DNA of 64,000 nt from a virus (Duplodnaviria > Caudoviricetes): positions 1,273-65,272 of the IMG/VR virus record IMGVR_UViG_3300017435_000003; one strand, 5' to 3'. The notes beneath the pieces are model-generated. The model saw nothing but the letters and a program-made list of their open reading frames with translations. It did not search any database and was not told the origin of the DNA. The translations under genes and the position numbers were made by a program. This document shows, piece after piece, positions 1-4,825 of the stretch (position 1 is the stretch's first letter; every line of letters begins with the position of its first letter).

Positions 1-105
1 CTGCCCCATAGCCTTGTGCGCGAATTGGCGCGCCGCGTACGTGACGAGCGCTACACCGTTAGCGTGATCTTCCGGGATGTTCCCCGGCCCCACCACCACG
101 ATTAA
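1..105 (+). CDS. 3' end of a hypothetical phage protein truncated by the window start
   Basis: Frame 1 is open from base 1 (LPHSLVRELARRVRDERYTVSVIFRDVPRPHHHD) to TAA at 103-105, directly before hammerhead 1. Confidence 0.55.
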   Translation: MPHSLVRELARRVRDERYTVSVIFRDVPRPHHHD

Positions 106-174
106 GGCGAAACCTAGCGGGGCTCCGGCTCTGCGATGGTCGCGCGGGATTGTTCGCCCCGCGCCTGATGAGCC
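106..174 (+). ncRNA. Type II hammerhead ribozyme 1, predicted cleavage after C141
   Basis: GGC-GAAA(109-112)-stem III-GUC(139-141)-stem I GCGCGGG/CCCGCGC-CUGAUGA(165-171)-GCC; loop UGUUC(151-155) is complementary to tail GAACA(175-179). Confidence 0.9.
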
Positions 175-195
175 GAACACGAAAGGGAAACTACC

Positions 196-360
196 ATGGC
201 CGCTACCTCAAGCACGCTTCGCGATCCTAGCCGCTCCCCCATCGCAAAGAGCCGCGCCCTTACGCGCCGCGCCGAACGTCGCGAAAAGAGCGCGCGCCTG
301 TTCCTCGCTTTTGTGTTCCCTGCTGATCTGTCCGGCTTTGCCGCGCCGTTCGCTCGCTGA
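196..360 (+). CDS. Small basic hypothetical protein, 54 aa (not in the ORF track)
   Basis: GAAAGGGAAA RBS then ATG 196; MAATSSTLRDPSRSPIAKSRALTRRAERREKSARLFLAFVFPADLSGFAAPFAR; TGA 358-360, followed by the GGAGG RBS of the next gene. Confidence 0.65.
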   Translation: MAATSSTLRDPSRSPIAKSRALTRRAERREKSARLFLAFVFPADLSGFAAPFAR

Positions 361-376
361 TCTGGAGGCTATGACC

Positions 377-1042
377 ATGGCAAAGCGCTTTCCCACCCCC
401 TCGCATGGCCTTTCCGTCCGGCATCTCGACAGCGAAGCTCGCAACATCGATTGGGGCGACGTTCGCGGCGAATATGACGATGGTTACTCGGTTATACTGC
501 CCGATCCGACCTATGGTGATTGGCAGGAACGCGACAGCAACCCTCCCGCGCGCATTGCAAGGCGCAGCGCGCGTTCGGTCATGAATGACGATGACCGCGC
601 CGAATTCGAGCAGACGGAAGCGCACGACGAATGGCGCGATTCCTTTGAGCCGATGATGAATTACGCGTGGCCTGTGTCGCTTGCTTATGGCGTTGGCCTG
701 AAGGAAGCCGTTGCGCTGATCGAAAGGCATGCGGGCGCTTGCTCGGTGATCGAGTTGAGCGACGAAGCGGGCGAGCGCCTTTATGGCGATGATGCACCGG
801 ATTACATCATCGCTCTGACAGGCGGCGGCATGAACCTAAGCGACCATATCGCCGCCGCATATCTCGCGTTCGGCTGCATTCCTCCCGAACGCGTTCTCTC
901 CGGCCTTGCTGGCGTCATCTCAAAGGAAAAGGCGCGCCGCATACCGTTGCAGGCGGCATATCGCGAAGCATCGAAGCACTACGCTTTGCGCGGCAAGCGG
1001 CTGCGTGAACAGGCGCGGCGCGTCTCCAAGGGGGAATATTGA
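377..1042 (+). CDS. Hypothetical early phage protein
   Basis: 3' part of ORF 77..1042; GGAGG at 364-368 favours ATG 377. Confidence 0.75.
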   Translation: MAKRFPTPSHGLSVRHLDSEARNIDWGDVRGEYDDGYSVILPDPTYGDWQERDSNPPARIARRSARSVMNDDDRAEFEQTEAHDEWRDSFEPMMNYAWPVSLAYGVGLKEAVALIERHAGACSVIELSDEAGERLYGDDAPDYIIALTGGGMNLSDHIAAAYLAFGCIPPERVLSGLAGVISKEKARRIPLQAAYREASKHYALRGKRLREQARRVSKGEY

Positions 1043-1049
1043 TCGCATA

Positions 1050-1113
1050 GGCGAAACCGCGCGCCAGCCGGTGCGCGGTCCAGCCGGGGAGGGCTCCCGG
1101 CTGCTGATGAGCC
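1050..1113 (+). ncRNA. Type II hammerhead ribozyme 2, predicted cleavage after C1080
   Basis: GGC-GAAA(1053-1056)-CCGCGC/GCGCGG stem III-GUC(1078-1080)-stem I CAGCCGGG/CCCGGCUG-CUGAUGA(1104-1110)-GCC; GGGCU(1091-1095) is complementary to tail AGCCC(1114-1118). Confidence 0.92.
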
Positions 1114-1136
1114 AGCCCGACGAATGGGAACGAACG

Positions 1137-1913
1137 ATGAGCGATGTTGAGTTTATGAGGGCGCACGAAGCCGGTTGCGAGTTGCTTGGACGGGGGACCG
1201 GCGTGCCGGAATCGTTGTCCGATCTGGCGGACCATATAACCCGCGTGGTGTGCAACCCATCTGACGGCTTGATTGCCGCGCTGGGCCGCGTTCTGCTGCG
1301 TCACCGCGAAACCGCCCATATTCCAGCCGCGCCGGAAGGCGGCGCTCTTTCTTGCTGCAACGGCGTGGGATGCAGCGACTGCGGCCCCGGCGCGCAAGCG
1401 CTGGCACGCATGGAAGCAACCATGGGCGCGTCGCTTTACGGCTGGCTTGTGGAAGAGATGGGCATGGAGCCGGAGCATTCGGGCGGCGGCTGCGCCATGC
1501 TTCGCCATACGGCTGCAAGCGGCGCTTATCTGCTGGTGACAGATGCGAGCGGGACCGGCTTGCCTGCGATGGATGACTGGTGCGTTGGCGTTTATCCAGC
1601 CGAACCGGGAGGCGGAATCGATGCTTTCGCGCTGCTCTACAGCAATGCAGCGGAGAAAGCGGATTACGGAACGCAGATGACGCTCCGGCAGGCTGTAGCT
1701 GCGGCTTGCGGCATCGCTGCGGAATGGGAAGCGCCAGCCGCTGCGGAACCGTGCGCCTTGGAGATTGGCGCGGCTCTTGTTCGCGATGCCGTCAACTTGC
1801 TCGATGTGGTGGAGCATTGCGACGACGAAGCGCTTGCAGACGGCGTGCTCAAGGTGATGACCGACGACGGGCGCTTGTATCGCGTTGCCGTCACTGTGTT
1901 GGAGGCGCGCTGA
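1137..1913 (+). CDS. Hypothetical early phage protein
   Basis: 3' part of ORF 906..1913; first ATG downstream of the ribozyme; stop overlaps the next start (TGATG). Confidence 0.7.
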   Translation: MSDVEFMRAHEAGCELLGRGTGVPESLSDLADHITRVVCNPSDGLIAALGRVLLRHRETAHIPAAPEGGALSCCNGVGCSDCGPGAQALARMEATMGASLYGWLVEEMGMEPEHSGGGCAMLRHTAASGAYLLVTDASGTGLPAMDDWCVGVYPAEPGGGIDAFALLYSNAAEKADYGTQMTLRQAVAAACGIAAEWEAPAAAEPCALEIGAALVRDAVNLLDVVEHCDDEALADGVLKVMTDDGRLYRVAVTVLEAR

Positions 1914-2251
1914 TGCCCCGCTATTCTGTCCCGCTCACCATCCTAGCAAGCATCACGGTAGACGCGCCGGACGCTGCTTCCGCGCGGAAAGAGGCGGTCC
2001 GCTTTGCGGAGGGACATGGAAGCGACACCGGCTTGTTCATGGACGGCTGGAACGATGTGCAGCGCCAGCACGGATTGCCTACCATCCACGACGTGAGCGG
2101 CTTTGACTGTGAAGGCGTCGAGCTAATGGAGGTGGAAGAGATCGACGACGAGCCGGAGACGTGCACCCATTGCGGCGAGGAGCGGCCCGCTGGTCCGCAA
2201 TCGTCCAGCTGGACCTGCCCGAACAACCATTACAACGCGCCGGAGGCTTGA
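1913..2251 (+). CDS. Hypothetical protein with C-terminal zinc ribbon (CTHC...CPNNH)
   Basis: GGAGG RBS, TGATG overlap, 3' part of ORF 1580..2251. Confidence 0.7.
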   Translation: MPRYSVPLTILASITVDAPDAASARKEAVRFAEGHGSDTGLFMDGWNDVQRQHGLPTIHDVSGFDCEGVELMEVEEIDDEPETCTHCGEERPAGPQSSSWTCPNNHYNAPEA

Positions 2252-2255
2252 GACC

Positions 2256-2687
2256 ATGGCTAAGCAATTCCTTGTTACTGTCACCGCCGAAGCGACCATT
2301 TCAGAGCGCTGGCTTGTTACTGGCGAAAGCGCAAAAGAGGTGCGCGAGCGTTGGGACGCAGAGGATATTCTTTCCCTGCCGGACACCGTTTTCTTGGACG
2401 ATAGCACTCTAGGGAATGAAGCGGAGCGCGAGCTATCCGACGTGGAGCCTTACGAAGCGCCAGATGCACCAGCCTTGCTGACGTTCACCGCCTTTTGTCA
2501 AAAGGCAGGCGCGGCAGGGGGAACGACCTGGATCGAGCAAGTTGAGGCGCGCGACATGTACCACGCTTCGGAGGTCGCGATACTCGCTTGCGCCGATGCC
2601 TGGGAATGTGAAGCCGTAGACATCTGGGTCTTGGGCATTGCCAAGGGAGACGTCGCAATCGTGTCATGGGAGGATCAAAGCGAATAG
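2256..2687 (+). CDS. Hypothetical acidic protein
   Basis: ORF track; GGAGG upstream; TAG abuts hammerhead 3. Confidence 0.7.
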   Translation: MAKQFLVTVTAEATISERWLVTGESAKEVRERWDAEDILSLPDTVFLDDSTLGNEAERELSDVEPYEAPDAPALLTFTAFCQKAGAAGGTTWIEQVEARDMYHASEVAILACADAWECEAVDIWVLGIAKGDVAIVSWEDQSE

Positions 2688-2757
2688 TCGAAACCTAGCG
2701 GGGGCACGCTCCCCCGCGATGGTCGGGCCGCATATGCCGCGCGGCTCCTGATGAGAC
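2687..2757 (+). ncRNA. Type II hammerhead ribozyme 3, predicted cleavage after C2724
   Basis: GUC-GAAA(2690-2693)-stem III-GUC(2722-2724)-stem I GGGCCGC/GCGGCUC-CUGAUGA(2748-2754)-GAC; stem II covaries against copies 1 and 2; loop UGCC(2735-2738) is complementary to tail GGCA(2759-2762). Confidence 0.92.
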
Positions 2758-2779
2758 AGGCACCATAGGGAATTGAACC

Positions 2780-4825
2780 ATGATCGCATCTAACTTCGCC
2801 GCCACTCTGGACCGCGCCGCGCTTGTCGCTGGCCTTAAGCTGTTCGGCAAGGTGGTCTCCAAGCGCAATAGCATCCCCATCCTCTCGCACCTGCTGCTGG
2901 AATGCGACGGCGCGAGCGTGACGCTCACGGGCACCGATCTGGACATCTACGCGAGCGTGACGCTCGACGCGCCTGCAAGCCAGCCGGGAAAGGCGCTGGT
3001 GCCGTGCGATCAAATGGCTTCCGGCTTGGCCAAGAGCAAAGGCGCGACGGTCTCCCTGCAATCCGTCCCTGGTGGCGTGGCGATGACGCTGGAGAACGGC
3101 GCGACAACGCGGCTGGCGACCACATGCGGCCTGGGCGACTGGCCGGAAGCAGTTGTGAAGCTGGGCGACCTGGGCGCGGCTGGTGACTTCGTGGCGGCTG
3201 AGCTTCGGGACGAATGGACGCGCGTGCGGCCTGCGGTCTCGACTGAGGAGACGCGCTATTATCTCAACGGCATTTACGCTTGCCAGCCCTACGGCGGTGG
3301 CATGGCCTGGGCCGCGACCGATGGCCACCGGCTCTGCGAACAGAAGCGCGACCTGCCTGCGGGGATGGCCCTGCCCAACTCGATCATTCCCCGGCTCACG
3401 GTGGATGTGATCCTGGCGGCGCTGGCGAAGGCGAAGGGCACCACGGCGCGCATGGCATTCAGCGCGGGCGCTATGCTCTTCACCCATGGCAATGTGACAA
3501 TCCGCTCCAAGCTGGTGGACGGGGTGTTCCCCGATTACAACCGCGTCATCCCGTCCAGCCGCAATCGCGTGGTGTCGATCGACGCGGGCGCGCTGGCCGA
3601 TGCCGCAACATCGGTTGTCGCGGGCCTGTCCGGCAAGACTCGGGCGGCGCGGTTCTCGATGTCATCGGACGGGCAATGGCTCACTGGCGCGGCGCGGGAT
3701 GCGGACGGCAACGTCTCGGCCATGGTCATCCCCGGCGCGACTGTATCGGGCAATAAGCGCGGAGAGTTCATGTTCGGGGTGAACGCGCCCTACCTCTCCG
3801 GCCTGGCGAAGCTGTTCCCCGGCGATGTGACGCTGGCGACCGGCGATGCTTCCACGCCCATCCTGATGGAATCCACCTCGCTCCCCGGCTTCCGCGCCGT
3901 TGTTATGCCGATGCACTATGACGGGGAGCCGCTTTCCCCGGCTGGCATTGCCGACATGAACAAGCCCGCGCCGACCGCCATGGAGGTGCTGGAGCAGTAC
4001 GGTCCTAAGCACGTTGCGGAACTGGCGGGCTTTCTCCTCCCCGGTGTTCGCCGGATGGTGTCGGTGCACCTGGGGCTCAAGATGCGCGCGGCAATCGACT
4101 ACCTGGGCGGAGATCGCCAAGCAGCGCGCGCGGTGGTCAAGGCGATGGTGGCGCGCATGCAGGGCGACGAAGCGGCGGCGGTGCGGATCGAGCGCGTTGC
4201 CAGCCATGAGCCGGTGACGACGTTCCGCAGCTGGTCGCAAAGCGTTCCTGCCTATGCGGGGCCGGTGTTCAACGTGGTGGAAGAGCCCGCGCCGGTCGCG
4301 CAGCCGGTGCAGAGCCAGCCGGACGACGTGGCGGCGCTCAAGGCGATGATCCTGGACATGGCGGCGCGTCTGGCGCGCGTGGAGGCTGGACAGGCCCTCT
4401 CAGGCCCGCAGACGGCTCCTGGGCGCACTCCGGCGCATGAGGCGGCTATCCGGCGCGCCTGGGCCGAGCGCAGCGCCAGCCGGGCCGCACGGGCGGCGCG
4501 CCAGGATACCGCGAAGCTGTTCGTGGTCGCGGAAGAGACCATCGCCACGGTCACGGCGCAGCGCGATGACTTCGAGCGCATCGCCATCCGCGAGGGCGAG
4601 CGCGCCGATCGGGCGGAAGCCAAGGTGGAAGTGCTGGAGACCCGCGTGGGACGGCTCAAGGCAGTGCTGGCGGGCCGCAAGGCGAAGCTGGTGCAGTATG
4701 CTCGCGAGCTACTGTTCGCCCGCGACCGTGGCGCGCAGTTGCAGCGTGAACTGATCGCAGCGCGCGACGGCAAGGCGAAGCGCTCCAGCGGCACCAGCTT
4801 CTCCATCGGCCGGAAGGCAGGCTGA
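2780..4825 (+). CDS. dnaN: DNA polymerase III beta sliding clamp homolog with long C-terminal coiled-coil extension
   Basis: Clamp motifs SKRNSIPILSHLLL, GTDLD, STEETRYYLNGIY, ATDGHRL, SKLVDGVFPDYNRVIP, AVVMPM; about 300 extra helical residues follow. Confidence 0.88.
   Translation: MIASNFAATLDRAALVAGLKLFGKVVSKRNSIPILSHLLLECDGASVTLTGTDLDIYASVTLDAPASQPGKALVPCDQMASGLAKSKGATVSLQSVPGGVAMTLENGATTRLATTCGLGDWPEAVVKLGDLGAAGDFVAAELRDEWTRVRPAVSTEETRYYLNGIYACQPYGGGMAWAATDGHRLCEQKRDLPAGMALPNSIIPRLTVDVILAALAKAKGTTARMAFSAGAMLFTHGNVTIRSKLVDGVFPDYNRVIPSSRNRVVSIDAGALADAATSVVAGLSGKTRAARFSMSSDGQWLTGAARDADGNVSAMVIPGATVSGNKRGEFMFGVNAPYLSGLAKLFPGDVTLATGDASTPILMESTSLPGFRAVVMPMHYDGEPLSPAGIADMNKPAPTAMEVLEQYGPKHVAELAGFLLPGVRRMVSVHLGLKMRAAIDYLGGDRQAARAVVKAMVARMQGDEAAAVRIERVASHEPVTTFRSWSQSVPAYAGPVFNVVEEPAPVAQPVQSQPDDVAALKAMILDMAARLARVEAGQALSGPQTAPGRTPAHEAAIRRAWAERSASRAARAARQDTAKLFVVAEETIATVTAQRDDFERIAIREGERADRAEAKVEVLETRVGRLKAVLAGRKAKLVQYARELLFARDRGAQLQRELIAARDGKAKRSSGTSFSIGRKAG

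Follow-up and report, generated by a model that had tools for sequence, protein, structure and literature searches.

Three candidate type II hammerhead ribozymes with mutually covarying loop I/3'-tail pseudoknots between the genes of a complete phage genome

The virus record IMGVR_UViG_3300017435_000003 opens with a run of rightward phage genes, in which three sequences have the form of type II hammerhead ribozymes, here named HH1, HH2 and HH3. In each of them, the terminal loop of stem I (loop I) can pair with the few nucleotides (nt) that follow stem II. Are these pairings pseudoknots kept by selection in working ribozymes, or leftovers of coincidence and duplication, and what might three such ribozymes do between the genes of a phage? 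We addressed these questions in a window of 64,000 nt, bases 1273-65272 of the 65,272-nt record, which is rated complete. Positions refer to the window, and its listed features are on the plus strand. A preliminary description of this DNA had proposed that loop I pairs with the 3' tail through a different sequence in each copy and that the copies are under selection for activity.

Loop-tail pairing in the three hammerheads

Judged by their sequence, all three elements are type II hammerheads. Covariance-model alignments place them in the type II permutation, with stems I (7-8 base pairs, bp) and III capped and a stem II that is open and 3 bp long. The catalytic core (CUGAUGA, GAAA, the A15.1-U16.1 pair and C17) is complete in all three, and the pairs next to it are intact, 10.1-11.1 being G-C throughout and 1.1-2.1 being G-C, C-G and G-C in HH1, HH2 and HH3, respectively. 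The minimum-energy fold of HH1 reproduces the three-way junction. We also built a covariance model from 22 type II hammerheads that carry the stem III internal loop described below, taken from other viral and bacterial contigs and none from the window. Across the 64 kb, this model finds HH1, HH3 and HH2 and nothing more (Table 1).

The six pairing stretches named in the preliminary description are exactly where it had placed them, the first of each pair lying inside the terminal loop of stem I. Loop I reads AUUGUUCGC in HH1, GAGGGCU in HH2 and AUAUGCCGC in HH3, and the helices it forms with the tails consist of 5, 5 and 4 Watson-Crick bp, which are not extendable. The tails begin 0, 0 and 1 nt past stem II. 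Each loop is matched to its own tail, as the preliminary description had it: every swapped combination reaches 2 bp at most, and own tails give duplexes of -5.4, -8.9 and -6.2 kcal/mol, against -4.2 kcal/mol or weaker for swapped ones. A random 6-mer of the same genome pairs equally well with P = 0.009, 0.007 and 0.09 for HH1, HH2 and HH3, giving a joint probability of about 5e-6, and shuffling the loops gives a chance of about 1e-4. Chance is excluded as the source of the loop-tail pairing.

HH1 and HH3 are clear paralogues with the common loop layout AU..UG..CGC, and the way in which they differ is informative. One of the four pseudoknot pairs that they have in common is C-G in both copies, and the other three have changed on both sides, from U-A to C-G, from U-A to G-C and from G-C to U-A (HH1 to HH3). 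When stems I, II and III are added to the pseudoknot, about eight double compensatory changes separate the two copies, with zero broken pairs. This comparison was made by hand, by loop position, as MAFFT set the tails one column out of register. Together with the intact cores and a geometry like that of independent type II hammerheads, these changes bear out the proposal that the copies have been maintained and are not decayed duplicates.

The same relationship between loop and tail was assessed in two collections of type II hammerheads. The first was obtained with a pattern on the stem III base common to HH1 and HH3, which led to 11 viral and 72 genome contigs and from these to 38 distinct type II hammerheads, including the three of the window. 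In this set, own combinations of loop and tail pair better than swapped ones (permutation P = 5e-5). The second set contains 166 distinct viral type II hammerheads, sampled without selection on stem III. Here, at least 4 bp are formed in 61% of own combinations versus 38% of swapped ones (P < 2e-4), by 26 different helix sequences. Hammerheads with the geometry found in the window (stem I of 7-8 bp, stem II of 3 bp, loop of 7-9 nt) have pseudoknots with the same spacers, and one of them carries the loop AUUGGACGC, close to that of HH1, together with a correspondingly changed tail.

Some further features of these collections were recorded. Type II hammerheads came in two builds, one with a stem I of 7-8 bp, a stem II of 2-3 bp, a loop of at least 6 nt and a pseudoknot, and another with a stem I of 6 bp, a stem II of 4 bp, a loop of 4-5 nt, an A-rich tail and no pseudoknot. 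The latter presumably use another tertiary contact. One viral locus, IMGVR_UViG_3300017605_000570, has 11 type II hammerheads on its minus strand, ten of them spaced 243-389 nt apart, so that nearly every small gene is flanked, and four further viral loci have 5-8 each; these arrays are far denser than the triple of the window. Two other loci, L026 (3185-3280, plus strand) and L041 (minus strand), contain hammerhead-like elements with a UA/GAY loop in stem III, a stem I and a GUGGU-type loop and with no CUGAUGA strand. The element in L026 also keeps the matching AGCCA tail. Both may be decayed or variant ribozymes.

Table 1. Positions of the three hammerheads, their parts and the neighbouring genes in the window.
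Feature	Position	Strand	Details
HH1, type II hammerhead	105..181	+	Rfam RF02276 28.8 bits; own model 66.8 bits, E 1.6e-16
HH1 parts		+	stem II 106-108/172-174; GAAA 109-112; stem III 113-139; stem I 142-148/158-164; core CUGAUGA 165-171
HH1 stem III internal loop UA/GAU	115-116 / 135-137	+	
HH1 predicted cleavage	after C141	+	U-C17 140-141
HH1 pseudoknot, loop I strand UGUUC	151..155	+	loop I 149-157; pairs with 175-179; -5.4 kcal/mol
HH1 pseudoknot, tail GAACA	175..179	+	directly after stem II
HH1 downstream signals		+	Shine-Dalgarno AAGGGAA 183-189; start codon 196
HH2, type II hammerhead	1049..1121	+	Rfam RF02276 45 bits; own model 44 bits
HH2 parts		+	stem II 1050-1052/1111-1113; GAAA 1053-1056; uninterrupted stem III 1057-1078; stem I 1081-1088/1096-1103; core 1104-1110
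HH2 predicted cleavage	after C1080	+	U-C17 1079-1080
HH2 pseudoknot, loop I strand GGGCU	1091..1095	+	loop I 1089-1095; -8.9 kcal/mol
HH2 pseudoknot, tail AGCCC	1114..1118	+	directly after stem II
HH2 downstream signals		+	Shine-Dalgarno GGGAA 1126-1130; start codon 1137
HH3, type II hammerhead	2686..2765	+	Rfam RF02276 24.4 bits; own model 63.9 bits, E 1e-15
HH3 parts		+	stem II 2687-2689/2755-2757; GAAA 2690-2693; stem III 2694-2722; stem I 2725-2731/2741-2747; core CUGAUGA 2748-2754
HH3 stem III internal loop UA/GAU	2696-2697 / 2718-2720	+	
HH3 predicted cleavage	after C2724	+	U-C17 2723-2724
HH3 pseudoknot, loop I strand UGCC	2735..2738	+	loop I 2732-2740; -6.2 kcal/mol
HH3 pseudoknot, tail GGCA	2759..2762	+	one-base spacer A2758 after stem II
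HH3 downstream signals		+	Shine-Dalgarno AGGGA 2766-2770; start codon 2780
Gene block between HH1 and HH2	196..1042	+	open reading frames 196-360 (54 amino acids) and 377-1042 (221 amino acids)
Gene block between HH2 and HH3	1137..2687	+	open reading frames 1137-1913, 1913-2251 and 2256-2687
Sliding-clamp (DNA polymerase III beta) homologue	2780..4825	+	first gene after HH3; PF00712, PF02767, phrog_947

Proposed working and alternative readings

The type II consensus includes a pseudoknot that joins loop I to the tail 3' of stem II, and in most members its pairing directly after that stem amounts to at least 4 bp (Perreault 2011, PMC3088659). At 0.5 mM MgCl2, reducing this pseudoknot from six to four pairs costs about 20-fold and trimming it further more than 100-fold, and a compensatory mutant restores activity (PMC3088659). 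In prophages, single genes or short runs of genes are often bordered by more than one hammerhead; clusters from Agrobacterium, Azorhizobium and Clostridium cleave in vitro, and those from Agrobacterium also in E. coli (PMC3088659). In Desulfovibrio vulgaris, three type II hammerheads near phage-like genes were found to be active in vivo by cyPhyRNA-seq (PMC8782182). The pseudoknot, the Mg2+ effect, the compensatory rescue and the clustered prophage layout are all already described in Perreault 2011 (PMC3088659). The preliminary description understated how well known the pseudoknot is, and the kinetic experiment that it proposed has already been done on other members of the type (PMC3088659).

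The published pseudoknot is present in three out of three hammerheads of the window. Like those of RF02276 and PMC3088659, they have the same permutation and core and a pseudoknot of 4-5 bp 3' of stem II, and they lie in a phage upstream of start codons; their stem II of 3 bp falls in the range of the type, in which it is open and 2-3 bp long. They differ from the common UGGCU/AGCCA pseudoknot, as the pairing strands are UGUUC/GAACA, GGGCU/AGCCC and UGCC/GGCA, and two of the three depart from the Rfam model in the UA/GAU loop of stem III. The clustered arrangement is found as well: three plus-strand copies occupy separate intergenic spacers, at distances of 939 and 1,644 nt. In this they resemble the prophage clusters of Agrobacterium tumefaciens (a triple around ardA), Azorhizobium caulinodans and Clostridium scindens (PMC3088659), where several same-strand hammerheads lie between genes within 2-3 kb of a phage operon and would divide its transcript into pieces of one or a few genes. 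The phage of the window probably also belongs to an alphaproteobacterial host lineage. Unlike in those clusters, the block here comprises five proteins without a family followed by a sliding clamp, with no ardA recognised, and cleavage, which was shown for the published clusters in vitro and in E. coli, is a prediction from sequence. The D. vulgaris hammerheads (PMC8782182) are likewise of type II and near phage-like genes; they occupy three separate chromosomal loci, whereas the copies of the window are clustered in one operon.

The placement of the ribozymes within the gene run is precise. The three spacers that hold them measure 90-94 nt, compared to 0-16 nt at the other gene junctions, and are the only spacers longer than 50 nt in the run. 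Each is occupied by its ribozyme from the upstream stop codon to the downstream Shine-Dalgarno (SD) sequence. Considering the fold, the intact cores, the covariation and this layout together, we regard it as highly probable that HH1, HH2 and HH3 are functional type II hammerheads with a rate-enhancing pseudoknot, which punctuate a rightward early/replication operon of the phage and cut its RNA.

In such an operon, the hairpins of stems III and I would form first during transcription. The CUGAUGA strand and the 3' strand of the 3-bp stem II would then close the junction, and the tail of 4-5 nt, made of the last bases transcribed, would pair with loop I. The pseudoknot would stack on the short stem II and keep stems I and II side by side, providing the tertiary contact that type II hammerheads require for fast cleavage at about 0.5 mM Mg2+; its role in the rate, like the chemistry of cleavage, is taken here by analogy from the literature. 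Cuts at the three predicted sites would yield messenger RNAs (mRNAs) for the gene blocks, with processed RNAs of 142-1080 (939 nt) and 1081-2724 (1,644 nt), in addition to an upstream block and a clamp block. The GC-rich hairpin of stem III, bearing a 2',3'-cyclic phosphate, would form the 3' end of each 5' product, and the 3' products would start with a 5'-OH at the stem I hairpin. Both pseudoknot strands would stay on the 3' product, so the knot could persist just ahead of the ribosome-binding site. We infer this order of folding, mRNA processing as the purpose of the cuts and any effect that they may have on RNA stability.

Several observations weigh against this interpretation. Only HH2 exceeds the gathering threshold of Rfam RF02276 (37 bits); HH1 and HH3 fall below it because their stem III is longer and interrupted by an internal loop. 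The minimum-energy fold of HH3 favours a competing CCUG/CAGG hairpin over the core strand, and the three elements do not fold with better energies than shuffled sequences (z = -0.2 to -1.8). The HH3 helix, with only 4 bp, is individually weak. The covariation rests on paralogues and unrelated hammerheads, and mRNA processing as a purpose is unproven even for the published clusters. If the loop-tail pairing were coincidental or a remnant of duplication, at least one copy, especially the low-scoring HH1 or HH3, could be an inactive relic, which would suit their Rfam scores and the single-copy chance of 0.09 for the HH3 helix. This is hardly credible in view of the joint chance, the failure of swapped tails to pair, the intact cores, the compensatory changes between HH1 and HH3 without a broken pair, and the 64-67 bits that both obtain with the independent model.

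The location of the tails brings translation into consideration. They end 3, 7 and 3 nt ahead of the SD sequence in HH1, HH2 and HH3, in agreement with the preliminary description, which had placed them just 5' of the next ribosome-binding site, and the stop codon of each upstream gene either overlaps the 5' strand of stem II or sits within 8 nt of it. The ribozymes or their pseudoknots might then serve mainly in translational control, with folding of the tail or cleavage altering access to the SD sequence, or with terminating or initiating ribosomes gating the folding of the ribozyme. Of 204 type II hammerheads, 61% have an SD-like site with a start codon at most 30 nt from stem II, compared to 6% of random 30-mers from the same loci. 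This proximity is general in the class, and the tight packing may merely reflect the compactness of phage genomes. In a nested-fold model, which cannot represent the pseudoknot, the predicted probability that the SD sequence is unpaired hardly changes between uncleaved and cleaved RNA (0.70-0.71, 0.57-0.61 and 0.53-0.57 for HH1, HH2 and HH3), and the start codons are predicted to be equally accessible in long uncleaved, short uncleaved and cleaved RNA. The pseudoknots also leave out the SD bases. These results lend no support to the suggestion, made in the preliminary description, that folding or cleavage could affect translation of the downstream gene, and we consider translational control as the main function unlikely. 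Gating of ribozyme folding by ribosomes that end next to stem II or start next to the tail is possible.

Alternatively, the reverse reaction or an RtcB-type ligase of the host might re-join the cut segments into circular or spliced RNAs, so that the pseudoknot would serve ligation as much as cleavage. Cleavage would indeed give the 939-nt and 1,644-nt segments 5'-OH and 2',3'-cyclic phosphate ends, and the possibility is named in Perreault 2011 (PMC3088659). However, clustered prophage hammerheads yielded no such products when the same authors searched for them (PMC3088659), the sequence has no feature that would bring the ends of the segments together, and no RNA ligase gene was noticed beside the ribozymes. 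Re-joining is accordingly very improbable. For the preferred reading, in which the ribozymes cut the operon RNA, the window supplies three further examples of the pseudoknotted type II hammerhead, well formed and covarying with one another, within a complete phage genome. They mainly confirm published work and introduce no new mechanism. The precise spacers, running from stop codon to ribosome-binding site, make the window a convenient test case for the purpose of clustered phage hammerheads, be it mRNA processing, stability or coupling of translation.

The internal loop of stem III

Stem III of HH1 (113-118 with 133-139) and of HH3 (2694-2699 with 2716-2722) starts with A-U, C-G and C-G pairs, continues with UA opposite GAU and a G-C pair, and extends into a covarying helix. 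The UA/GAN loop is separated from the core by three base pairs and precedes the cut site by 4-6 nt (CC-UA-G / C-GAN-GG). The motif CCUAGC...GCGAYGG was found in 11 viral and 72 genome contigs from many phyla. As the pattern is short, about 63 chance matches are expected in the genome collection; about two thirds of those observed fall within elements that can be recognised as hammerheads, of type II and also of type I. The type I carriers include Paenibacillus, Cohnella and Selenomonadaceae. None of the 166 viral type II hammerheads sampled without selection on stem III has the motif.

With no constraint on the letters of the loop, 37 hammerheads had this loop geometry, and UA/GAN was the reading in 29 of them, the second strand being GAU in 18, GAC in 8, GAA in 2 and GAG in 1. 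Four fixed bases and one free base would presumably fit a U-A reverse-Hoogsteen pair and a sheared A-G pair with a bulged base, as in a UA_handle or UAA/GAN-like motif. In four loci scanned with Rfam, only two Pseudomonas type II hammerheads reached the gathering score, and the other motif-bearing type I and type II hammerheads were missed.

It is conceivable, although doubtful, that HH1 and HH3 belong to a sub-class of hammerheads defined by this loop, found in types I and II across many bacterial phyla and phages. If so, the loop would have an accessory role outside catalysis, perhaps as a docking site for a protein or a ligase on the 5' product, or in the protection or marking of that product's 3' end. 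The existence of such a sub-class would also explain why curated models miss the ribozymes that bear the loop. We found no description of a UA/GAN loop in stem III in Perreault 2011 (PMC3088659) or in full-text literature searches. The loop is possibly undescribed and merits a specialist's look.

Gene context and relatives of the phage region

According to the list of open reading frames (ORFs), the genes of the first several kb all run rightward on a single strand. Small ORFs come first, the last of them at record positions 1189-1377, with its TAA stop at window positions 103-105; they are followed by HH1, the first gene block (196-360 and 377-1042), HH2, the second block (1137-1913, 1913-2251 and 2256-2687), HH3 and the clamp gene (2780-4825). 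The first 2.9 kb yielded no sigma-70-like promoter. The five proteins flanked by the ribozymes matched no Pfam, PHROG or NCBIfam family and gave no usable Atlas match. An Rfam scan for other ribozyme or RNA families in the 64-kb window returned none at E <= 1 except two weak small-RNA matches, far below threshold, near 11.5 kb.

The nearest relatives of the clamp protein (77%, 54% and 52% identity) are encoded on contigs of 65,482, 64,484 and 9,677 nt, and the 65,482-nt contig also encodes the single relative of the ORF 1137-1913 product. A search of viral and metagenome contigs for related loci with the window proteins returned none of these near-relative contigs. At the DNA level, annotated phages showed no match to the region beyond short fragments of the clamp or of hypothetical genes. 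The C-terminal part of the clamp had no match in 401 genomes of the family of Sphingomonas sp. Leaf22. The host of this 65-kb phage is probably alphaproteobacterial (Sphingomonadales-like). Around distant clamp homologues, 80 loci (about 0.95 Mb) contained no type II hammerhead detectable with our own scanner and no homologue of a flanked ORF, indicating that the ribozymes are not tied to clamp genes.

The clamp homologue itself is 681 amino acids (aa) long, including a C-terminal extension of about 300 aa. Numerous contigs of about 60-65 kb encode relatives of 600-1,037 aa, pointing to a lineage of phages in which the clamp is fused. A weak PHROG match to a RusA-like family falls within the clamp part of the 2780-4825 product.

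The locus also bears on annotation, since two of the three ribozymes score below the Rfam threshold and a gene caller began an ORF at an AUG inside a ribozyme core. The public call for ORF 1137-1913 is a protein of 268 aa that starts at AUG 1107, within the CUGAUGA core of HH2. This AUG is in frame with the start at 1137, which is better placed with respect to the SD sequence at 1126-1130. The 268-aa call is likely a start-codon artefact due to the ribozyme core.

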